Shown: one piece after another, positions 13,471 to 26,000 of the stretch
Layout: each line of letters opens with the position of its first letter
Numbering within the stretch: position 1 is the stretch's first letter
Origin: Scenedesmus sp. PABB004
Taxonomy: Eukaryota
Reading direction: 5' to 3'
DNA length: 64,000 bases
Assembly (NCBI GenBank): GCA_014905635.1
Contig: JABVCE010000019.1
Span: 1 to 64,000 of the forward strand
Position numbers and translations under genes: made by a program
The notes under the pieces: generated by a model
Told to the model about the DNA's origin: nothing
What the model saw: the letters and a program-made list of their open reading frames with translations, nothing else
The model's database searches: none

Positions 13471-15351
13471 TCACACCCCGAGGTCGCCCCCGGTAATGGT
13501 CCCGCGCCCTTCAAGGGCGGCGCCAATGGTAACAGGATGCCGATGTACAGGCTGACGGCCAGAGGGGCCACCAACATCCGAACGCAGTCGCCACAGCTCC
13601 GCAACATAGGTCGCTGCCGCCCGCGCCGTATCAGGGTGCGCAAGGCAGGGCCCAAGCAACCACTGCCGTGCGCGCTGCAGGTCGCCGCGTACTGCCGCGC
13701 TGTCCGTGTCCGCCGCTGTGCCGGCCGAGTCCGCTGCCAAATCGCCAGCTGCCGCAGCCGCCGGGGCAGGCAACGCCGGCACGCCGCCTACGCCCGCCTT
13801 CCTCAGCTCCAACTCCATGTTGGCTGCCACAGCCGCCGGGTGGAGGCCGCGGGCGGGCAGACGCGGCGCCGCCCGCATCGCCTGCAGAAGCGATGCCAGC
13901 TTGCCCGCGCGACCTGGGGCGGGGCAGCTGAAGAGGAAGTGGGCAGTAGTCTCGGCCGCCGGGGCGCCGACCCCGGCGGCCTGGCACGTGGGGCACGCAG
14001 CGCGCAGCCGCGCAGCCGCCGCGCTGCCGCGCTGATAGCCGTGCTCTGCGGCCAAGCCTGCGCATTCAGCGCGCAGGCGCAGAAGCAGCTGCGCGGCCGC
14101 GCCGCGCCGGTCGTTGGAGAGGTCAGCGAGGTAGCGCCGGGGCTGGGGTTTGTAGTGCCGCAGCTCACCGGGCCCAAAGGCCCGCGTGTAGCGTGCTGCA
14201 ATGCCGTCGGCGTTGGCAGCCGCGCTGCGCCGCCACGCTGCCGCGACGTACGCCCCCGCGCGCCGCGCGATGTGCTGCGCAAAGCTCATGGCGTCCCAGG
14301 CAAACGCGCCCGCTGCAAGCCCCCAGCTGCGTGCCAGACCGTCCAGCGCACTAGCCCAGCCGGCATCGTGGCCCCACGCCCGCAGCGCACGCACCACCAG
14401 GCGGTCAGCGGGCAGGTGGCGCAGCCTGTGCCAGTAGCGCAGCGCCGCCGCGGCGCATGTGACATGCAGCGGCACGACGCCCAGCTCCTGCTGTAGGCAG
14501 ACTTGCGTAGCGTTTGGCGGGCATCCCAGCGCCCACGCCACCGTCTGCGTCTGCCACGAGTCAAGCTGCCGCCGCTGCGCCGCCGTGTCCCGGGACCAGA
14601 CCTGTGCAGCGTATGTGACGCAGGGCTGCACAACCGCTGTGAGCGCAAGGCGCCGCACAGAGAGAGGCAGGCGCGGGTCGCGCAGCACGCCCTGTTGCGC
14701 GCGCGCCGCGCGGCCAGCCTGCCGCAACCTATGCTCCAGGTGTGCGCCCCAGCTCGCGTCGTCCGTGAGGACGACGCCGAGGTACGTGTAGGTGCGAACC
14801 GCAGGGATGGCCATGCCGCCGGCAGTGCCCCACCACCATTGCTGCTGCGACGTTGCCGCCGCTGCCGCCGCCTCGGCCGCCGCCGCTGCCGCTGCAGCGC
14901 TGCGACGCGCGCTCAGCGACCGCGGTCGCGCCCGCACCACCATGATGGCCGTCTTGGACGCGTCGCTGGCATCAACGCTGGCCTTGAGCCGCCAGCGGCT
15001 AAGCGCAGCATGCGTGACGTCGGTAAGGCTCTGCATCTCCTCCGGCGAGCCAGCCACGGCCGCACAGTCGTCCGCGTACGCCAGCGCAACGAGCTTATCG
15101 TCGGGCTCCGTAGCCGAAGCCTGCGTAGCGACCCCAGCCGGCAGCGCGGCGGCCGGCGCAGGGAGCGGCACACCCGGGTGCGCCGCCCATACCTCGCGCA
15201 GCACCGCGTCGATGAACACGGTGAACATGGTGGCGGCCAGCGTGTCGCCCTGCTCCCAGCCCATGCCCGGCTGGTAAGCCGCCGACAGCGCGCCGCGGTG
15301 CAGCACGCGGCTGCGCGGGCCGCCCGTCATCTGCGCCAGCACGCGGAAGAG
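13471..15351 (-). mobile_element. 5'-truncated non-LTR retrotransposon (3' half of RT plus C-terminal Zn finger), related to 17315-23071
   Basis: LFRVLAQMT...GWEQGDTLAATMF...LAYADDCAA...YTYLGV...CPTC..ETTAHFLFSC is colinear with the C-terminal half of the 1911-aa ORF. Homology stops abruptly at ~15351. Confidence 0.93.
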
Positions 15352-15366
15352 CAGCATATGTCGACC

Positions 15367-16152
15367 CACCTTGTACGTGTCGGGGTTGTAAAAGCCTTGG
15401 ACGACGTGCCAACATACCAGCTTGGCAACCAAGAGACCGAGGCAACGACCAGTTCGCGCTCGTGACGACGAACTGGCAGGGCGCCTTCTGCGTCGACATA
15501 TGCAACAGCGCAGACTGCGGTGACGTCCACGGCAACAGTGAGTAGGACAGGAATACAAACGCTTTTGCGGTTTGCTGCGTTTTGTTGCTTTTGTGCTGAC
15601 CTGCCTGCTGCTTGTTGTCAACAGCAGTGCCCACCCTCCACCGCTTGACGATGCGCCGCTCTCCGCCGCGCGCGCTGCCGCAGTCATTCAATACAGCTGC
15701 CAGTGAGTGAGGGCAGGGGTTCTGCCGCGCGCGCTGCCGCAGGGGGCGCCCTGGCGCGCGGCGGCGGGGCGCGGCGGCGTGCCGTGCCACGCCGCGCGCC
15801 TCGTGCGTGGGCGCTGCGCTTCACTGCAGTTGGGCGCCCCACACGCTCGGCGTGCTGCCCGTCGCGCAGTTATGGACCCAACCAGCTGTGGTACTGGAAT
15901 TCCACAGCAGACGGCTTTGGCGGGCGCCTGCTGCGCAGCGTGAGCTCTGGCAGGTGTGTGACCGCATGCCCGGAGGCCAACACGTACTGCAACTTTGTTG
16001 GCGATGTGTCTACGGCGCCATGCAACGCGACCGACCCCACCCAGCGCTGGGCCTACAAGGCACCAGGTGTGGCTGATGCGCATGACCCTGTGCCAACTTC
16101 CGCCAGCGCCAACCTCACACGCCCTACACCGCTCGCAGGGTCGGTCCCTTGA
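15367..16152 (+). pseudogene. Second, rearranged copy of the C-terminal ricin-B-like lectin module
   Basis: + strand exons ANIPAWQP..QFALVTT..CVDICNS (15407-15537), IQYSC (15684-15702) and HYGPNQLWYW...QRWAYKAP (15870-16066) parallel 12461-13019. The GFYNPDTYKV part lies inverted at 15367-15402. Confidence 0.8.
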
Positions 16153-17314
16153 CAATGATGATGGTGGTGGTGGAGGAGTTGGTGACGTTGAGTCGTTGCA
16201 AACAAATGCAGGCTTCTGGACAATCTGCCTGGACGCACAGTCAGCATGAATCGTTGCTGTGCATTTGCTGGTGCATCTCAAGCTGAGGGCAAGCAGCATG
16301 AGCAACACTGCAGTGTGCTTCTCCAGCAGCATTGCGTCGTTGAGCCGGGCCTGGCGGCTGGCGGCTGGGCTGCGGCGCCCGCCGCGCCGCCCCCTCCGCC
16401 GGAGCCTGCAGGGAGCTGAACAGGCTCGCCCTCGGGGTTGTTCGCCCGGGCGGCGTGCTGCTCACCTGCTCTTGCAGCGGACCCAGAGTGGTGGCCTGGC
16501 CTTCATTGCCGTCGACGCGGCCCGCAAAGCGGAGCAACAAGTTGTACTGCTGGGCCACGCCGACGCTGTGCCGGATCGCCCCCTGCATACAATGAGGGCG
16601 AGAACCTTGCCACACTCATGTCATGGACAGAACTTGGGGTGGCTCCCGGGAGGCCATTGCGTGCCGAAAAGCCAGGACCAGCGCCACACCAGACCCGATC
16701 TCAACCCACACGCGCAGCGCCAGAGGCGCGCGAGCCCGCGCGGAGCCAGTCGGCCGTGGCGGGCTGCCCGCCAACGGCTAGTTCCGTTCGGCCGCGCGCG
16801 CGCCCGTGAGGGCGCGCGCGCCTGCTCAGAGCGCGTTTTCGTGAGGCTGGAGGCGTGAGGGCAGCCGCGGCGGGCCCGCCGCGAGCGCGGCGGGCCTGCA
16901 GCGTGCGGCAGCAGCAGCGCAGCGACCACGGCAGCGGCAGCGGCGACGGCAAGGCGACTGACGGCGTGCCCAGCGCAATGCGGACCCCTTGACCTTCAAG
17001 GGGGCTGCACTGCGCCGGAGGCGCACGCTGTCGGTCACGCTGGAGCAACGGCAGCAGCGGCGGCAGCGGCAGCGGGCGGGTGCCCCGAGAGCGACAGCGC
17101 TGGCGCAGGAGACGTCTGGCCCGCCAGCGGCAGCGTGCACACCCCTAAGACGCGCCACGCCGCCGGACCCAGCCGGACTCCCCTGCACAGCGCAGCCGCT
17201 AGGCGGGGCGCTCGCCTGCCAGCCGCGGCCGCCGCTGCAGCTCGCCCAGCACCTGCCAACGCCCACGCTCACCGCGCGCACGCGGCTGCCCCACCCTCCA
17301 GCTACTGACACACC

Positions 17315-20300
17315 ATGCAGGACCACAGGGACGCAGGAACGGAGGCGGCTGCAGCCGGCGTCAGGGCCACAGCGGCCACGCCGGGCTCGCCTGCCGTGCG
17401 CCCCTGTGGTCCTGGCGTCGGCGGGCCGCTCTACGTGTGCGTGGGCGGCGCGTGGCGGACCATCACCAGCGACAAGCTCGGGGTTGGGCCGTCCGCCGCC
17501 GGGCCCGCACCGGGGCCGGACTACGCCTGGGTGGAGGGGGCCTGGCGCCGCGCGGCGGCCCTGCCGACCCCGGCGGGGCCGCCGGAGCGGCGTGCTGGGG
17601 GCGCGCGCCTGCCCGGCAGCACTGGCCGCGCGCGCGCTGCACCCACCGCCGCACCTGCCCACGCGCCGCCTGCCACCGCCGCCCGCCGCCGCACGACAGG
17701 TCATGCCCAAGGCCGCCCCGCGGCGGTCGCGCAGCGTGCGGCCCCGCCTTGTGCGCTGGGGCTCTCTGCCCTGGTGTTTGGCGTCGGCCCCGAGGATGCC
17801 ATCGACGGCGGCAACCCCGCGCGCAGCAAGCTCTCCGAGGCCGTCCGGCGGGCTATTGCAGCGGGGGCTGATGCCGACACGCTCACGTTGGCGGCGGCCG
17901 CGCTGGCCGCGGGGCGCATGCAGTGGATGGGCAGCACGCGTGCGGCGCAGCGCCGCCGCGTCATGCGTGTGCGCCTGCAGCGCATCCCCAGCGCCCACCG
18001 CGCTGCGCTGCTCCAGCACCGCGCGGCGCTGGCGGCGGCGCTGCGCACGCAGCTCGGCTGGCGCCTCGTGGTCTGCGAGGACGGCCGCGCCCTGCCTGCT
18101 CAGCCGCCCCTGCCCACAGACGCCAACCCCTACGCAGCGCTCGCCGATGCTGCCGCCGCCGAGGCGGCGCCGGACAGCGGCGCCGAGTGCCGCGCGGCTC
18201 CCCCGCGCCTGCACGGCAGCATTGTGTGCAAGCACTTTGCTGGCCACGGCGACTTCTACGGCGTGGTGCTCAAGATCCGCGGCGCCCGCGGCCCCTACGC
18301 CTACCGTGTGCACTACACCGACGGCGAGGACGAGACGATGACGGAGGAGGAGGCGCGGGGCCACCTTGCCGGCAGCGTACCAGCAGCGCACGCGGTGCAC
18401 GCGCTGCGCGCGCGCCTGCTGCCGCCGACGCCCGCAGATGGCGTGGTCGTCAAGAAGTACTTCCGGTCGCACCGGCAGCACTTTTACGGCGTGCTCACCG
18501 TCCGGCCGCCCTTCTTTGCCGTAGCCTACACCGACGGCGACGCGGAGGACATGGACGCCGACGAGGCTGCGCGGCACGCGGTCGCCGACGCGCCCGAGCT
18601 CGCGCCGCACTGGGCCGGGCTCGCCGCGCGCGGCGCGCGCGCTGACCTCTACCCCCTTGCCGCCGCCGCGGCCGCTCAGCTCGCGCTTGGCGCCGACGCG
18701 CCCGAGGCGGCGCCGGCCGCTGCGGCCGCCGCCCCGGCTGCCGGGGCGGCGGCCGCCGACGTGCCGCTCGCGCCGGAGCGCGTCCCGGCGGCCGACAACG
18801 CAGCGCGGGCGCGCCGCGCGTGTCCCGCCTACACCGACCGCCGCATGCGCCGCCGCCACACAGGCCTCGTACGCGCCGCCAACCTGGCGTGGGCCCGCGC
18901 GGGGCTCCGCGTGGCGTGCATCAACGTCTGCGGCATGACCAGGCTGCAGGCTGCCGAGCTCGCCGCTGCTACGACGGCGCTCTGCATCGACATCCTCGCC
19001 GTCGTCGAGACCTGGGAGGGCCACCCCTGCGTCGCCCACGAGCTGCCTGGCTACACCTTCATCGGCAAGCCGCGCAGCCGGGGGCAGGGCGGGGGCGTGG
19101 GCTTTTACGTCGCGCGCGCGCTGGCCCCGCTCGTGCGCGCGCACGCCGACACGCAGCTGCCCGAGGCGCTCTGGCTGGAGCTGCGCCGCGGCGGCAGCGC
19201 CGCGACCGCGCGGCCGGCGTCTGTCGGCGTCGTCTACCTGCCGCCGGCGTCGCTGGAGAGCGCCGCGCTGCGGGCCGACACCTACGCGCAGCTGCAGACG
19301 GACATCCAGAGGTTCCAGGAGCGGGGCGCGGTGCTGGTGCTGGGCGACTTCAACAGCCGCGTGGGCAGCAGCGCGCCAGCGGAGCAGCAGGCGGACCAGC
19401 CGCCGGCGCGCATCGGGCAGTGGGGGGAGAGCGGCGCGCCCGACGCGGCGGGCCAGGCCCTGCTGGCCATGCTCGACGCCACTGACCTGTACGCCCTCAA
19501 CGGGCGCGCGCCCACCGCCACCGGCCTGCCTGCCTACACCCGCGCCCGCCTCGTGTGCGGCGCTGACGGCACGCACACCGAGCAGTGCTCGGTGCTCGAC
19601 TACGTCCTCGCGCCCGCGGCGTGGGCGCTCCCCTCCAGCCGCGGCCCGGCGCCCTGCGCCCTGACCGTGGCCGACGATCGGCGCATCACCAAGTCTGACC
19701 ACCTGCTGCTGTGGACCTGCCTGCCTCACCCCGCCGCCCGCGCGCGCGCCCCCGCGGGCCTGCGCCGCCGCGTCGCGCGCACCGACCTGCTCAAGCCGGT
19801 CCCGGGGCAGCGCGATGCGGGGCATGCCGATGCCTACCGCGCGGAGCTCGCCGACGCGCTGGCCGACTATGCCGACGACGTGGCTGCCCTCGCCGACCAG
19901 GTGGGCAGCGCGCTGCTGCCGGCGCGCGAGGCGTGCGCGCGCGCCAAGGCTGCGCTGTGCGATGCCATTTGGACGGCGGTCGATGGCAGCGTCGGCTACA
20001 GGGAGGTGCGCTCGGGCGGTCGCGGCGGCAGCGCCGCCGCCGCGCGGCGCATCTTCACGCCGGCGGTCCAGGCCGCCGTGCAGGCGCGCCGCGACGCCGA
20101 TGTCGCGCTGGCGGCCGCCCGGGGGGCGGCCGCCGGCGGCGACGCTGACGCCGCCCCTGCCCAGGCTGCTGCCGAGCTTGCCGCCGCGCGGGACCAGCTG
20201 TGCGCCGCACAGCGGGCTGTCAAGTCCGCCGTGGCGGCTGCGCGCGCAGCGGAGCTCGGCCGCCGCGTTGACGCGGTTCACGCCCGTCACGCGGCAGGCG

Positions 20301-23050
20301 ACGGCAAGGGCATGTGGGAGCAGCTGCGCCAGATTGCCGGCACTGCCAGGCGGGGCCCTGGCGGCCCCGCAGCGCTGCGCGCTGCTGCCAGCACTGGCAT
20401 GGTTGTGGGCGAGCAGCAGATCGCAGACGCCCTGGCAGCGCAGTACGCCAGTGTCAGCGACCCCGCGGCGTTTGCTGCCGGGGCAGACTTTGACGAGCAG
20501 TGGCGCGAGCAGGTCGAGGCGGACGTGGCGCGCTACCGCGCCGCCGCCTCTGACCCCAGCGGCAGCGACAGCGAGCAGGACCCCCTCAGCGCCGACATCA
20601 CCGCCGCCGAGGTCGCAGCCCAGGCGCAGGCCCTCTCCAACAACAAGGCCCCCAGCCCGCTCGACGGCGTCACCAACGAGCTGCTCAAGTACGGCGGCGA
20701 GCCCCTTTGGGGCGCGCTGGCCGCCTTCTTCAACCTGCAGTTCACCCTGGAGACCAAGGCCCAGACCGCCGGCGTCATCACCCCGATCTACAAGCGCGGC
20801 GACCCGACCGACCCCGCCAACTACCGCCCCATCACGCTCGGCTCCGCGGTGGACAAGCTCTACAACCTCGTGCTCAACAAGCGCCTCACCGACCACCTTG
20901 AAGGCCACGGCCTGCTGCACGACGCGCAGCAGGGCTTCCGGCCCGGGCGCAGCGCCGCCGACAACATCTTCATGCTCACCTCCTGCCTCGACGCCCGCGC
21001 CGCGCAGGGACTCGACACCTACGTACTGTTCCTTGACATCGCCAAGGCCTACGACACCGTGTGGCGCTCCGGCCTGCTTCACAACCTCTGGCGCGTGGGC
21101 GTGCGCGGCCGCCTGTTCCGCGTGCTCGCCAACATGACCGACCGCACGCGCAGCATGGTGCGGCACCGCGGCGCGCTGTCAACAGCCTTTGAGCCGGGCC
21201 TTGGGTGGGAGCAGGGCGACACGCTGGCGACTACGATGTTCAACGTCTTCATCAACGCCGTGCTCCAGGAGGTGTGGGCCGCCTGCCCGGGCGTGCCGCT
21301 GCCCGCCGCGCCCGCGCCCGCGCCCGCCGCGCCACCCGCGCCCGAGCCAGGCGCCGCCGACGACAAGCTGGTCGCGCTCCTCTTTGCGGACGACTGCGCC
21401 AGCCTTGCGGCCGGCCCGGCGGAGATGCAGCAGCTCCTTGGCGCCACGCGCGCCGCGCTCGCCCGCTGGCGGCTCAAGGCCAGTGTCAGCTCGGCGGACG
21501 CGTCCAAGACAGCGGTGATGGTGGTGCCGGGGGGCCGCACCCGGCGTGCCGTCGCTGCGGCGGCTGCTGCCGCGGCGGCCTACCAGTGGTCGTGGGGCGC
21601 GGAGCAGGTGCCGCGCGTCACTGGGTACAGGTACCTGGGCGCGTGGCTGACGGCCGACCGCAGCGCCCGCAGCTGGGACGCCCACCTGCAGCGCCGCAAG
21701 GCTGCTGCGGACAAGGCGTTCTGGGCTCAGTCGGCGGTGCTGCGCGAGCGGCGCCTGCCGCTGCGCCTGCGCCTGCTCACGCTCACGGGCGTGGTGCAGC
21801 CTGTGTTGACGCACGCGGCCCAGGTCTGGGCCCGCCCCACGGTCGAGCGCCGCGCGGAGCTCGACTCGTGGCAGGCGGGGCTGGTGGCGCGCATGACCGG
21901 GTGCCCGCCCAACGTGTCGCACGCGTGCCTGCAGCAGGAGCTGGGCATCACCCCGCTGCATGTCGTCTGCGACACCCTCATGCTGCGCTACTGGCACCGC
22001 CTGCGCGCCCTGCCAGCCGACCGCCTGTTGCGCCGTGTTGCCGACGCCTGGCCCGCCACGCCGTGGTGGAAGGGCGTGGGCGGCCTCCTGCGGGACTACG
22101 GCGTCGATGTTGTGGCTACTGCTGGCATGAGCCGCAACGAGTTTGCTGCTCACCTTTGCGACCTTGCTGGCGACCACATCGATGGCGCCTGGGAGGCCGC
22201 TGCCGGCCGCGGCTCGGTGGCGCGGCGCTACCGGGAGGCCTTTGGCAGCGGCGTCTTCTCTACTCGCTCCTTCACGCGCCGCGCCGGCGTGCCGTGCGCC
22301 CGGGATTACCTGGGCTGGCTCTGCAGCCCCGGCGGCCCGCGGCGCGGCCGGCCGGCGGAGCTGCTCATGCGCCTGCGCATGGAGTGCCTCCCGCTGCGCG
22401 CTGCCCACAGCCACGCGCGCCGGGGGGAGTCGATCGCGCAGCAGGCGGAGCGAGAGCGCTGCCCCTGCTGCGCTGCGCGCGCGCCCGAATCGGCCGCGCA
22501 CTTTCTCTTTGAGTGCGGCGCGCCCGGCCGCCCTGCACGCCTCGTTGCGCTGCTTGCGGACCTCCGTGCCAGCGGCGGGGGCGCGCATGCTGGCGCGCTG
22601 GCTGCGCACCTGCGTGCGGCTGGTGTTGAGATGGCGGCTAGCGGCAGCCAGGAGCTGGAGGCTGGAGCTGGCGGCGGCGGCAGCGGCAGCGTCAGCGACC
22701 CCGGCGTCGTGGCTAGCGCGGCGGCCCCTCGGGCTGCTGACGCAGGCGCGGCGGTCAGCATCAGCGATAGCGGCGTCACGGCTGATACGGCGGCCCCTCG
22801 GGCTGATGATGTCAGCGCGGCGGTCAGCGTCAGCAGCGTCTCTGCTGGTGCGGCGGCCCCTCGGGCTGCCGTTACCGGCGCGGCGAGTCGGTGTGCAGCA
22901 CTGGAGCAGGCTCGGCGTTATTTGCTTGGTGACCTGCTGCAGGATCAGCTTGCTGTTCACTCTGTGGCAGATTATGTGATGGACATCTGGAAGATGCGGG
23001 ACACCGTCCTTAAGGGGCGCGGGACCAATGGGCACGAGCCTGTGGTGTAA
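17315..23050 (+). CDS. LINE polyprotein, 1911 aa: ORF1/RRM-like region, two Tudor-like domains, APE endonuclease, reverse transcriptase, CxxC..H..C Zn finger
   Basis: APE motifs at ~18905-19705: INVCG, DILAVVETW, GGGVGFYV, VLGDFNSRVG, LDYVL, SDH. RT motifs: KAPSPLDG, PIYKRGD..PANYRPITL, QQGFRPGRS, FLDIAKAYDTV, EQGDTL, LFADD (FADD 21383-21394), YRYLG. Zn finger CPCC..ESAAHFLFEC at ~22460-22516. Confidence 0.95.
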   Translation: MQDHRDAGTEAAAAGVRATAATPGSPAVRPCGPGVGGPLYVCVGGAWRTITSDKLGVGPSAAGPAPGPDYAWVEGAWRRAAALPTPAGPPERRAGGARLPGSTGRARAAPTAAPAHAPPATAARRRTTGHAQGRPAAVAQRAAPPCALGLSALVFGVGPEDAIDGGNPARSKLSEAVRRAIAAGADADTLTLAAAALAAGRMQWMGSTRAAQRRRVMRVRLQRIPSAHRAALLQHRAALAAALRTQLGWRLVVCEDGRALPAQPPLPTDANPYAALADAAAAEAAPDSGAECRAAPPRLHGSIVCKHFAGHGDFYGVVLKIRGARGPYAYRVHYTDGEDETMTEEEARGHLAGSVPAAHAVHALRARLLPPTPADGVVVKKYFRSHRQHFYGVLTVRPPFFAVAYTDGDAEDMDADEAARHAVADAPELAPHWAGLAARGARADLYPLAAAAAAQLALGADAPEAAPAAAAAAPAAGAAAADVPLAPERVPAADNAARARRACPAYTDRRMRRRHTGLVRAANLAWARAGLRVACINVCGMTRLQAAELAAATTALCIDILAVVETWEGHPCVAHELPGYTFIGKPRSRGQGGGVGFYVARALAPLVRAHADTQLPEALWLELRRGGSAATARPASVGVVYLPPASLESAALRADTYAQLQTDIQRFQERGAVLVLGDFNSRVGSSAPAEQQADQPPARIGQWGESGAPDAAGQALLAMLDATDLYALNGRAPTATGLPAYTRARLVCGADGTHTEQCSVLDYVLAPAAWALPSSRGPAPCALTVADDRRITKSDHLLLWTCLPHPAARARAPAGLRRRVARTDLLKPVPGQRDAGHADAYRAELADALADYADDVAALADQVGSALLPAREACARAKAALCDAIWTAVDGSVGYREVRSGGRGGSAAAARRIFTPAVQAAVQARRDADVALAAARGAAAGGDADAAPAQAAAELAAARDQLCAAQRAVKSAVAAARAAELGRRVDAVHARHAAGDGKGMWEQLRQIAGTARRGPGGPAALRAAASTGMVVGEQQIADALAAQYASVSDPAAFAAGADFDEQWREQVEADVARYRAAASDPSGSDSEQDPLSADITAAEVAAQAQALSNNKAPSPLDGVTNELLKYGGEPLWGALAAFFNLQFTLETKAQTAGVITPIYKRGDPTDPANYRPITLGSAVDKLYNLVLNKRLTDHLEGHGLLHDAQQGFRPGRSAADNIFMLTSCLDARAAQGLDTYVLFLDIAKAYDTVWRSGLLHNLWRVGVRGRLFRVLANMTDRTRSMVRHRGALSTAFEPGLGWEQGDTLATTMFNVFINAVLQEVWAACPGVPLPAAPAPAPAAPPAPEPGAADDKLVALLFADDCASLAAGPAEMQQLLGATRAALARWRLKASVSSADASKTAVMVVPGGRTRRAVAAAAAAAAAYQWSWGAEQVPRVTGYRYLGAWLTADRSARSWDAHLQRRKAAADKAFWAQSAVLRERRLPLRLRLLTLTGVVQPVLTHAAQVWARPTVERRAELDSWQAGLVARMTGCPPNVSHACLQQELGITPLHVVCDTLMLRYWHRLRALPADRLLRRVADAWPATPWWKGVGGLLRDYGVDVVATAGMSRNEFAAHLCDLAGDHIDGAWEAAAGRGSVARRYREAFGSGVFSTRSFTRRAGVPCARDYLGWLCSPGGPRRGRPAELLMRLRMECLPLRAAHSHARRGESIAQQAERERCPCCAARAPESAAHFLFECGAPGRPARLVALLADLRASGGGAHAGALAAHLRAAGVEMAASGSQELEAGAGGGGSGSVSDPGVVASAAAPRAADAGAAVSISDSGVTADTAAPRADDVSAAVSVSSVSAGAAAPRAAVTGAASRCAALEQARRYLLGDLLQDQLAVHSVADYVMDIWKMRDTVLKGRGTNGHEPVV
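22700..22870 (+). repeat. In-frame tandem repeat (3 copies, ~60-69 bp) in the LINE C-terminus
   Basis: cggcggcccctcgggctg recurs three times (AAPRA), the first two followed by AAVS. The insert is absent from the related element at 13471-15351. Confidence 0.85.
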
Positions 23051-23072
23051 CTATCTTTATCTTTATCTTTAC

Positions 23073-26000
23073 CTGTGCCTGATCGATCAAGTAGCCCCCC
23101 ACAGAAGTGCCGTCCCCGATGTTGGCCTTGCCAGCAACACCAGAGCCTGCGCGCAGGGGCAGCGGCGTGCGTTGGCTCTCCGCGGCAGACATGCGTCCAG
23201 CGGGCGGGGCGGGCCCGCCACTCACACGTCACTGCCACGTTGTTGACCGCGTTGCTGCAGGTGGCGCTTTGGGCATACTGGACGCAGAGGAGGCGCGCAG
23301 GGGGGGGGGGGGGGGGGGCAGATGATGAGTGGCCAGCCCGCGCATGCTGCACACGAGCATGCTTGTGCGTGCAGCGTGCGGGGGCCCCGCACCTTGCAGC
23401 ACTTTTTGCCCGCGTCCGAGCTGCTCAGGCCCGTGATGTCGGTGGTGCCGCCAGCGTTGACCAGGCCTTGATCGCCCCAGGTGCTGGAAAGGGCGTCGCT
23501 GCCTGCGCACGAGAAGCAGGCAGGCAGCGGGGTGGGCTGGCGCGCACGCAGGGGTGGGGCCACGCCACACACTCCCCGCACTCACATGACAGCTCCCCTC
23601 CTGATGCGCCGCCCTCGTTGACGTTGGCACAGGTCGCGCCGGTAGGGAAGGCCTGCGGCGGAACATGCAAACAACGTGCCGTTTGTCAAACATGCGTGCG
23701 TGGCTCACAAGAGCCCTCTGCGGCGCAGGCACTCACCGTGCAGCAGAGCGAGCGAGCGGCGTCTGCGCCCAGACCACCGATTGGAGCCTCCTCCGTGTCC
23801 AGGAGCTTGCCTGTGCCCTCGCCTGCGTGCGGATTATCAGGGGAGTTGAGTTATGGATGCTGGGCTGGCAGGTCAGCTTGGCGGCCAGCGAGCGCCGCCG
23901 ACGCACATGACACGGCGGTGGAGCCAATGTTGCCGCATGTCAAGCCGCCGTCGTACGGGTCGGCGGTGCAGCAGATGGCATGCGCTTCCTTCTCCGTGAC
24001 GCCCGCGATGCGGCTGGAGCTCCCCATGTTGCGCTTGCCGGTGACGCCGCAGTAGAGCTGGTCGCCCTTGGTGCCGTCGCCGTTGACGTCGATGCAGGAG
24101 GCGCTGCCCGTCGCAGAGAACTTGATCTGTGGCAGCAGCGAGTGAGCTCCATTTGCTTCAAGGGCGGCGGCGCGGGCGCAGACGGGCAGCCGACGCGGGC
24201 TGCGCGCGCACCACAGCGCAGCACGCGGCGTGCGCCTCCTCCGGCGTCTTGCCCTCAATGGTGGTGGTTGCGAGGTCGAGCGCCGTGTCGAGCTTGAAGC
24301 CCGCCCCGCAGACCATGCCCACCGGCGACTGGGCCCCCGGCAGCGTGCTGAGGCAGGTGGCCCCCTGGGCGTACGTTGCCCTGCACGTGCCAGGGCTGGT
24401 GCTGCTCCACGTCGCAGATGGGCCGACTTGATCGCAGCGCGCGGTGGGTGGGTCGTTGCCGATCACGCACCGGGCCTCACACGTCTGGCCGATGCTGTTG
24501 GGGCAGAGCAAGGGCCAGGCGGCGTGCGTGATGGTGATGGGTGGCGACAGCACGCACGTGACTGCGTGGGGGGCGATGGCGGCAGTGAGGCGGGCGAGGG
24601 TGGCAGCGCTGCCCCGCGCCCAGCCGCCGCTCACGCTCGGTGCAAGAGCCGGCAGGGAGCGTCCATGTGCCCGTCGCTCTGTCGCACAGCGATGACGCGC
24701 CGCCCCTGAAGCCGGATGCGCACGTGGCAGAGCAGCCTGCGCCTGCGTCGCAGCCCGTGTCCCACACTGCATTTTCCACCTGTGGCAAGTTGGTGCTGCT
24801 GCACGCAACGCCGTCTGCGGGCAACGAGGCAGGGTGAGGTGGATTGTGTCGTCGGCAGCCTGGATACGCTGGGCGCAAAGCTTGCTGCGCGTGCGCGCAC
24901 CGGTGGTGGGCGTGATGCAAGCCAGACTGTCCACCCGCCAGTCGCCCGAGGCCTGGCATTCTGCGCTGCGCACGCCAAACCTCGTGTCGCACACGCCCTC
25001 GCACACGTCTCCGCTTGTCATGCCGGCGCAGCGAGCGGGCCATTGGACGCCGAGGGCGGGCGGCTTGGAGTCGCAGCGCGTGAGGATGATGACTGCGTGC
25101 CGTCGCAGCGCGCGGGGGCTCATGGTAAGTGGGCAGAGAGCAGCAGTGCAAGCCAACTTGCAAGCCAATTGGCTGCTCCCCTACCTCGAACAAAGCTCTT
25201 GTCAGGGGCTGGTGCAGCAAAGCGCGAGCTCGCAGCATTGATTGCGCCTGTGATGGTCGATACCAGCAGCGTGATACTGGGGGTGCCAGCGCTCAGTTCG
25301 CTCGTGAGGAGAGCAGCGATGGCGTCGACGTCGACGCTTGACGCCGAGGTGGGAATGCCCAGTGCAGTTGCGAGCGCTTGGGCAGCCTGCACGGCCTGGT
25401 CGTCGGCAACGTCCGCGCGCGTGGTGAGGGTGAAGGTGTACTGGGCATCTTGCTGCTGGTGAAGGCGGCGCCGGCGCCTGGGCTGCACGCAGGCGCCGGG
25501 TGCGCTCTCGAGCATTCCGGCCTGCGCTGGGTCAGCCCCGCGGCGAGTTGAGCAAGCAAGGTGCGTGCCAGGTTTGCTGCGTCGTCCTCGGTGGCGTCAA
25601 TGCAGCTCTTCAAAGGCAAGTCGAGGTCGACGCGCAGGCGCCGCAGCACAGGGACCCGACAGCACATGGACTTGGTCGCCTCGCTCAAGCTGTTGAGCTG
25701 CGGCGCGGGCTCTCGAGGCGGCAGGCCGAGGGCCTCACACTTGCCAGCACACGCGTTCTGCGGTGCAGCCAGCAGCAGGTGGGCGGACCGAGCGGCCGCA
25801 CAGCGCACAGCCACAGCGCACAGCGCACGGCGCGCAGCGCGCAGCGCGGCGCACAGCGCACAGCCAGCGGCCCGCGCGCTGCCCGCAACCTACGCAGCAC
25901 GTCGCAAAGGAGGGCGTACTGCCCTGCAGCAAGGTCGGGAGTGGGGAGCGCAGCGCGGCACCAGCGCCGCAGGGGAAGCCGTTGCACGTTGGGGCGGGCG

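Follow-up and report, generated by a model that had tools for sequence, protein, structure and literature searches.

A LINE clade with a tandem pair of predicted Tudor domains ahead of its endonuclease, represented by an intact element in the alga Scenedesmus sp. PABB004

A 64,000-nucleotide stretch of the genome of Scenedesmus sp. PABB004 (positions 1 to 64,000 of contig JABVCE010000019.1; hereafter the window, to which all coordinates refer) contains an intact long interspersed nuclear element (LINE) at 17315-23071. The element is of an L1-like type with a single open reading frame (ORF) that encodes an apurinic/apyrimidinic (AP)-type endonuclease, a reverse transcriptase (RT) and a C-terminal CCHC motif. 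Ahead of the endonuclease, the same protein carries two units of the PTM/DIR17 Tudor family, and this module is kept in a clade of divergent relatives that occurs in this alga and in metagenome and sequencing-run assemblies. A Tudor-bearing LINE is apparently undescribed so far. It is plausible that the protein reads methylated histones to choose its insertion sites.

Two PTM/DIR17-type Tudor units in the LINE protein

A sequence-only reading of this DNA had reported two similar units of about 50 residues at 18215-18580, within an ORF of 1911 codons. Both are found as quoted: in the frame of the ORF the interval corresponds to residues 301-422, and the units are identical at 22 of 51 residues (43%; BLASTP E 2e-8). 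The features concerned are:

17315..23050, + strand: LINE ORF (P0001), a single uninterrupted frame of 1911 aa, with an MQDHR start that is kept in relatives
18215..18367, + strand: Tudor unit 1, aa 301-351
18392..18418, + strand: inter-Tudor linker helix, aa 360-368, matching the motif SW..VP......L..LGGR, which the clade has after every Tudor unit
18437..18583, + strand: Tudor unit 2, aa 375-423

The assignment of the units to the PTM/DIR17-like Tudor type, made in the same reading, is borne out by Pfam family PF21743 (PTM_DIR17_Tudor), which is matched in two stretches, at 31.6 bits by the whole ORF and at 41.3 bits by the 122-residue segment, with a curated cut-off of 27.2 bits. The signature of the family consists of aromatic residues on strands 1-3 and a D-G-D-x-E turn. 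The signature residues are F308, F314/Y315, Y330, Y334, D336, G337, E338 and E340 in unit 1, and F383, F390/Y391, F401, Y405, D407, G408, D409 and E411 in unit 2, where Y405, D407, D409 and E411 show no variation across the 13-row alignment. The same columns are conserved when 26 LINE units are set beside 49 host-type units taken from 20 non-LINE PF21743 proteins (F9, an aromatic residue at 14/15, Y/F30, Y34, D36, G37, D38, E40 and E46). The Tudor units stand out as conserved blocks between more variable linkers: in 12 full-length relatives, mean identity to the window protein is 0.32 for Tudor 1 and 0.38 for Tudor 2 and 0.18-0.24 for the adjoining linkers, with 0.48 for the endonuclease and 0.58 for the RT.

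A phmmer search with the 122-residue segment against 1.84 billion representative sequences returned 36 matches at E<=0.001, among which the sole endonuclease-RT protein was the family's own cluster. Pfam scans of 33 of the 36 matches identified as carriers small multi-Tudor proteins, proteins combining Tudor units with a SET domain (P0013), a Myb domain (P0019), a PHD finger and bromodomain (P0034) or a PDZ domain, and one Helitron (P0020). Several further matches were low-complexity sequences without a Tudor, two of them with TPR and CHAT domains, one with bacterial Ig-like domains, and some with no Pfam family. Judged by domain content, the nearest non-LINE carriers are chromatin-type proteins (SET; PHD plus bromodomain; Myb). 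The Helitron protein, of 2363 residues, combines Helitron_like_N, a PIF1 helicase and three PF21743 stretches at its C-terminus, and matches the tandem across both units.

Among PDB sequences, the 122-residue segment found no match with phmmer, and a profile of alignment A1 (residues 296-445 plus the matching segments of 12 related elements, 13 rows) matched only the lamin-B-receptor (LBR) Tudor, with E values of 0.039 and 0.16, and one unrelated row. No usable match came from the ESM Atlas.

Predicted fold and ligand pocket

The Tudor/SH3-like fold, for which the sequence-only reading had proposed a check by Pfam and structure prediction, is predicted for both units. AlphaFold2, with A1 as input, gave a mean predicted local distance difference test (pLDDT) score of 81, with both units at about 87-92 and each consisting of four strands followed by a short helix. 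In a Foldseek search of the PDB, the tandem Tudor of BAHCC1 in complex with H4K20me1 ranked first (E 3.4e-4), followed by 53BP1, the SETDB1 Tudor and the AGDP1 Agenet domain. VIA-align superposed unit 1 on BAHCC1 with Z 5.5 and a root-mean-square deviation (rmsd) of 2.3 Å over 55 aligned residues, and unit 2 with its helix on SETDB1 with Z 5.3; the PHF1 Tudor followed at Z 5.0 and the Arabidopsis RDM15 Tudor with H3K4me1 at Z 4.8 and 22% identity. The prediction that each unit is a Tudor-type (SH3-like) barrel is thereby well supported, and the Pfam score adds to it.

In 53BP1-type Tudors, the aromatic residues of strand 1, strand 2 and the end of strand 3, together with the next acidic residue, presumably line the methyl-lysine pocket, and an aspartate at that pocket position favours mono- or dimethyl-lysine. 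The conserved signature residues and the histone readers among the nearest folds are consistent with a retained ligand pocket in the modelled units.

Conservation in copies and divergent relatives

A word-index search with the Tudor region identified three proteins of 1661-3146 residues that are 98-99% identical there. These three further copies (P0003-P0005; recorded at NCBI under Scenedesmus sp. PABB004, a chlorophycean alga) all carry PF00078, PF03372 and PF21743. In the gene models of P0003 and P0004, which lie on two different contigs, the element is directly preceded by one and the same C-terminal fragment of another L1-like LINE; this arrangement may reflect a nested insertion, 3' transduction or a (segmental) duplication.

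The search with the endonuclease-RT region yielded 31 proteins. In addition to the three copies and P0066, a chimeric host gene model, they comprise 25 that are 40-50% identical and come from ENA, JGI and Logan records, and two distant ones at 31-32%. Among the 27 relatives that remain when same-genome copies are set aside, a stretch of 190 residues or more precedes the endonuclease in 16; P0055 and P0059, in which Pfam finds no endonuclease, were counted by more than 1100 residues before the RT. Tudor-like units were found by phmmer with the 122-residue segment in all 16 (E 2.3e-13 to 1.5e-3), in most as two stretches about 90 residues apart and in P0050 and P0063 as three. The remaining 11 have under about 120 residues ahead of the endonuclease. 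The PF21743 cut-off is reached in two of the 16 (P0042, 36.5 bits; P0044, 40.1 bits), with sub-threshold matches in three more, and the family is matched at E<=0.01 by 10 of the 13 tandem segments of A1 (best 2.8e-13).

A search for related Tudor-endonuclease-RT proteins and an RT phylogeny had both been suggested for this element. The RT tree has 29 rows; the same-family copies P0003-P0005 and the chimeric P0066 were omitted, and the upstream LINE of P0003, which had no match at 1e-5, is absent from it. The 27 close rows group apart from P0067 and P0068 with a Shimodaira-Hasegawa-like approximate likelihood ratio test (SH-aLRT) value of 100, and Tudor-bearing rows occur in every subclade. Several rows lacking the N-terminus form near-identical sister pairs with Tudor-bearing ones; two such pairs are P0041/P0042 and P0065/P0047. 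On this sequence evidence, the simplest reading is that the Tudor module is ancestral to the clade, the short rows being truncated copies or truncated gene calls.

Absence of the segment from other copies of the family had been named beforehand as the observation that would speak for a one-off capture. That one copy picked up a host exon by chance, or that the ORF is a spurious one in GC-rich DNA, might be suspected in a window whose G+C content is 70-80% (58-83% in 2-kb windows) and which is full of long spurious ORFs in all frames. The segment is, however, 98-99% identical in all three other copies found and present in 16 of 16 divergent relatives that retain the N-terminus, some of them from DNA of ordinary G+C content. 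The module is therefore not a one-off capture, and both of these explanations are excluded by the data.

Two further searches added the following. A word-index search with A1 in 'longer' mode returned at least seven proteins, all of them LINEs already found or alike, in a search where crowding-out is possible. A metagenome scan with P0042 identified three loci, each of which covers a 3' part of an element and lacks the Tudor region.

Organisation and ends of the element

The sequence-only reading had described the element as an AP-endonuclease/RT LINE with the Tudor units in the same frame. This description holds, with Exo_endo_phos and RVT_1 domains downstream of the Tudor units and no intervening stop:

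18836..18859, + strand: basic run DRRMRRRH between Tudor 2 and the endonuclease, RRRRR in relatives; a candidate nuclear localisation signal
18905..19723, + strand: AP-type endonuclease, aa 531-803 (Pfam Exo_endo_phos at aa 555-796, 8.6e-8; boundaries set by motifs)
20798..21487, + strand: reverse transcriptase, aa 1162-1391 (Pfam RVT_1, 7.2e-25)
21377-21403, + strand: FADD motif inside the RT
22460..22516, + strand: C-terminal Cys/His (CCHC) motif, CPCC-x9-H-x4-C, identified from sequence
23051..23071, + strand: short-repeat tail, (TATCTT)3-like, which begins directly after the stop codon and marks the 3' end of the element

Features expected of a LINE are present, with an AP-endonuclease followed by an RT in one protein, several copies, 5'-truncated copies among them, and a defined 3' end. 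The C, P, C, H and C columns of the C-terminal motif are nearly invariant in alignment A2, and relatives give weak zf-RVT matches. In the open-frame list of the window, no separate ORF1 accompanies the endonuclease-RT ORF.

The 3' end of the element is fixed by metagenome contigs from three runs of three studies, which match the element and then diverge from the window at 23068-23071. In one run, contigs extend upstream to about 16349-16631 and may represent the corresponding locus of a related strain. A target-site duplication was sought without success, the longest repeat between the 3' flank and the upstream sequence being a single 8-mer (the 5' end of the copy is undefined). On a contig of run X5, the 3' end of the element (23070) is followed by a single T and then by a copy whose sequence begins at 18218, three bases past the start of Tudor unit 1. 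This junction is a head-to-tail pair of which one member is 5'-truncated, and it may have arisen by insertion at an existing tail.

Elements of the clade end in short-repeat tails, not in poly(A). Two copies of a relative, L001 (2760-2780) and L002 (2340-2362), end in (ATGT)n, and their flanks diverge beyond it. Two other sequence features were recorded in or near the element of the window. A stretch of 35 bases at 18722-18756, in the region of low complexity and high alanine content that separates Tudor 2 from the basic run, is 97% its own reverse complement, and a run of about 20 G lies at 23300-23320, 230 bases past the 3' end.

A possible chromatin-reading role of the Tudor pair

LINEs are the most abundant retroelements of many genomes, and their choice of target is mostly ascribed to the sequence preference of the endonuclease or to sequence-specific DNA-binding domains. 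Reader-guided integration has been experimentally shown for long terminal repeat (LTR) retrotransposons and retroviruses. The chances are judged about even that the Tudor pair of the present element anchors the endonuclease-RT protein on methyl-lysine chromatin and biases its choice of target. The protein of the element, after its translation, would bind its own RNA in cis and enter the nucleus, where the Tudor pair would hold the protein-RNA complex on nucleosomes or chromatin proteins with methylated lysine. The endonuclease would then nick nearby DNA, and target-primed reverse transcription would start preferentially in one chromatin state. In LINEs, such a mechanism would correspond to the chromodomain-guided integration of chromoviruses. 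In a narrower form, the clade as a whole may use its two or three Tudors to read methyl-lysine of a low state, for example H3K4me1 or H4K20me1/2, and so steer target-primed reverse transcription; the conserved acidic pocket residues suggest the low methylation state, and this fuller proposal is put forward tentatively, as one that could well prove wrong.

Several points weigh against a pair that reads methyl-lysine. Taken singly, the Tudor units reach only 23.2 and 24.7 bits, under the PF21743 cut-off. The structural Z values of about 5 are middling, as is usual for barrels of 50 residues, and KOW domains, PWWP domains and designed SH3-like barrels are matched at similar Z. In the AlphaFold2 model, the 25-residue linker between the units has a pLDDT of 57-59 and the predicted template modelling (pTM) score is 0.48, while whole-model superpositions on tandem Tudors give an rmsd of 12-15 Å. 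Given the low-confidence linker and the pTM, an integrated two-Tudor reading surface is uncertain. The mapping of the conserved residues onto an aromatic cage follows 53BP1-type geometry, not coordinates, and would serve as a lead. Furthermore, we know of no PF21743 member for which ligand binding has been described, and nucleic acids and methyl-arginine proteins are further possible ligands of Tudor folds.

The N-terminal module and alternative roles

Upstream of the Tudor units, the relatives share an N-terminal order that begins with the MQDHR start and the motif CGP...GxGPS..CP..VW..AWRR and continues with a domain ending in LGWRLVVCEDG..LP...NRFA.L. Two Tudor units follow (three in P0050 and P0063), each trailed by the SW..VP......L..LGGR motif, and then an arginine run and the endonuclease. 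One model of residues 1-300 contains two folded parts in this region:

17429..17554, + strand: small beta unit, aa 39-80, four short strands (pLDDT about 85-94), with the clade motif CGP...GxGPS..CP..VW..AWRR
17756..18085, + strand: alpha/beta domain, RNA recognition motif (RRM)-like/ferredoxin-like, aa 148-257 (pLDDT 93-97), which ends at the conserved LGWRLVVCEDG

The small beta unit gave no fold match in the structure searches, and the alpha/beta domain gave no Foldseek match under E 0.017. With VIA-align, run on 48,161 chains, the alpha/beta domain matched RAMP proteins (Z 5.6), the GUCT domain (Z 5.4) and the RRM of human L1 ORF1p (2w7a_B; Z 5.2, rmsd 3.5 Å, 93 of 99 residues aligned), and some two dozen further RRMs followed at Z 4.2-5.0. 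As these Z scores are middling, the RRM-like assignment is weak; the model weakly suggests a fusion of an ORF1-like RNA-binding domain with ORF2 in this element.

This arrangement bears on a different role for the Tudor pair, which lies in the ORF1-like half of the protein and could act in the assembly of the ribonucleoprotein (RNP), not in target choice. The ligand of the pair would then be RNA of the element itself, single-stranded nucleic acid or a host protein with methyl-arginine (an Sm-type or Argonaute-type partner, for instance), and the pair would promote assembly of the RNP, its entry into the nucleus or evasion of silencing. In keeping with such a role, the Tudors directly follow the domain that aligns with the L1 ORF1p RRM at Z 5.2, a separate ORF1 is absent, and the methyl-arginine readers SMN and the extended Tudors of TDRD proteins are among the fold matches (Z 4.5-5.0); published abstracts, moreover, describe DNA- or RNA-binding Tudor domains. 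However, the nearest non-LINE sequence relatives are of chromatin type (SET, PHD plus bromodomain, Myb) and the best fold matches are histone-lysine readers. In addition, the conserved D-G-D after the third strand is commoner in lysine readers such as 53BP1 than in methyl-arginine Tudors, in which Asn is used. A role in the RNP is regarded as rather unlikely, though it is the chief alternative to tethering.

The Tudor pair might also act after integration, by recruiting or mimicking host chromatin factors that keep the copy transcribed or unsilenced, with no part in the choice of site. General evidence of this kind comes from passages of a survey of chromatin-transposon fusions, in which the capture of reader and writer domains by transposable elements is said to aid, possibly, the evasion of host suppression (bioRxiv 10.1101/2021.11.30.470311). 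The Tudors of the present element, however, share one polypeptide with the endonuclease and the RT. During insertion a LINE protein works in cis, at the target site, and we know of no mechanism by which it would stay at its copy. A purely post-integration role is thus considered improbable.

If the Tudor pair does tether the endonuclease-RT protein to methyl-lysine chromatin, the element would rank as the first non-LTR retrotransposon guided by a reader domain, built as a single polypeptide in which an ORF1-like RRM domain is included. A clade of LINEs that has kept a Tudor pair over deep divergence would offer a natural test of whether chromatin marks can direct target-primed reverse transcription. 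Furthermore, a compact protein that combines a reader, an endonuclease and an RT may interest engineers of site-biased insertion tools.

Surroundings in the window

A second LINE of the same clade lies 1.6 kb upstream of the full-length element, head-to-head with it, in an otherwise gene-rich stretch. The host genes of the window, identified by Pfam in long open frames, span 27794-62414:

13471..15687, - strand: second LINE, same clade, 5'-truncated, N-terminal part missing; its RT and C-terminal part shows 43% identity to aa 1257-1910 of the full-length element
27.8-29.9 kb, - strand: ureide permease
30.8-32.3 kb, - strand: RCC1-like protein
37.0-39.7 kb, - strand: tubulin-tyrosine ligase
40.2-42.6 kb, + strand: Pex16
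46.1-51.5 kb, + strand: H+-pyrophosphatase, in three pieces
60.4-62.4 kb, + strand: ankyrin-repeat protein

The sole full copy seen sits among ordinary host genes, which has no bearing on targeting either way.

Comparison with known elements and readers

The element shares with L1-type LINEs the order of AP-endonuclease and then RT, the C-terminal Cys/His motif and, on weak grounds, an RRM-like fold resembling that of L1 ORF1p. It differs from them in having one ORF instead of two, with the RRM-like part fused, and in its additional Tudor units. The poly(A) tail of the L1 clade is likewise replaced by a (TATCTT)3-like repeat. The nearest solved relative of the endonuclease-RT region is human L1 ORF2p (1e-15), with R2 close behind (1e-13); the assignment to the L1 clade is provisional, given this small margin and a tree without reference LINE clades. 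In green algae, Zepp-like centromeric L1 elements are recognised by copies that are clustered and nested in a few regions. The word Tudor is absent from two papers on such Zepp-like L1 elements in Chlamydomonas (PMC8226300; bioRxiv 10.1101/2025.03.28.645958), and a search of full-text literature, with Repbase, Dfam and the supplementary transposon libraries of green algae outside its range, brought up no description of a Tudor domain in a LINE or other non-LTR element.

Compared with known tandem and single readers (BAHCC1, 53BP1, SETDB1, the LBR Tudor and the RDM15 Tudor), the units described here would share the fold of each unit and the aromatic and acidic residues at the presumed pocket positions. 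They differ in that identity to these readers is only 10-22% and in that the two units are joined by a 25-residue linker with a helix predicted at low confidence.

Reader domains in transposons are already known, and a LINE with a Tudor pair adds to this theme. According to the parts of a survey of 172 eukaryote genomes that bear on this point, 823 gene models fuse chromatin domains to transposable-element domains, mostly chromodomains and PHD fingers (bioRxiv 10.1101/2021.11.30.470311). The Helitron P0020 resembles the present element in being a transposon with the same Pfam Tudor family, but is a rolling-circle DNA transposon with C-terminal Tudors, known from a single protein record. Gypsy-10_Ec32 of Ectocarpus, described in a 2025 report whose relevant section presents it as, to its authors' knowledge, the first transposable element reported with a Tudor domain (PMC12477816), is likewise a Tudor-bearing mobile element. 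As compared by description, not by sequence, it is a brown-algal LTR element with a single C-terminal Tudor, whereas the LINE clade is of green-algal type, has an AP-endonuclease and carries two or three Tudor units at the N-terminal side. The LINE clade would add to evidence that mobile elements have repeatedly recruited Tudor domains, as they have chromodomains and PHD fingers, the carriers here being this clade, a Helitron and a Gypsy element.

The closest parallel in design is found in the chromoviruses, Ty3/Gypsy elements such as MAGGY, in which a reader-type domain of the royal family is also fused to the inserting enzyme. In MAGGY, the chromodomain targets the element to H3K9me chromatin, as cited in a passage of the survey mentioned above (bioRxiv 10.1101/2021.11.30.470311). 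Chromoviruses use LTRs and an integrase and carry a C-terminal chromodomain whose role has experimental support, whereas the present element is a non-LTR retrotransposon with two Tudor units, of putative ligand, N-terminal to an AP-endonuclease.

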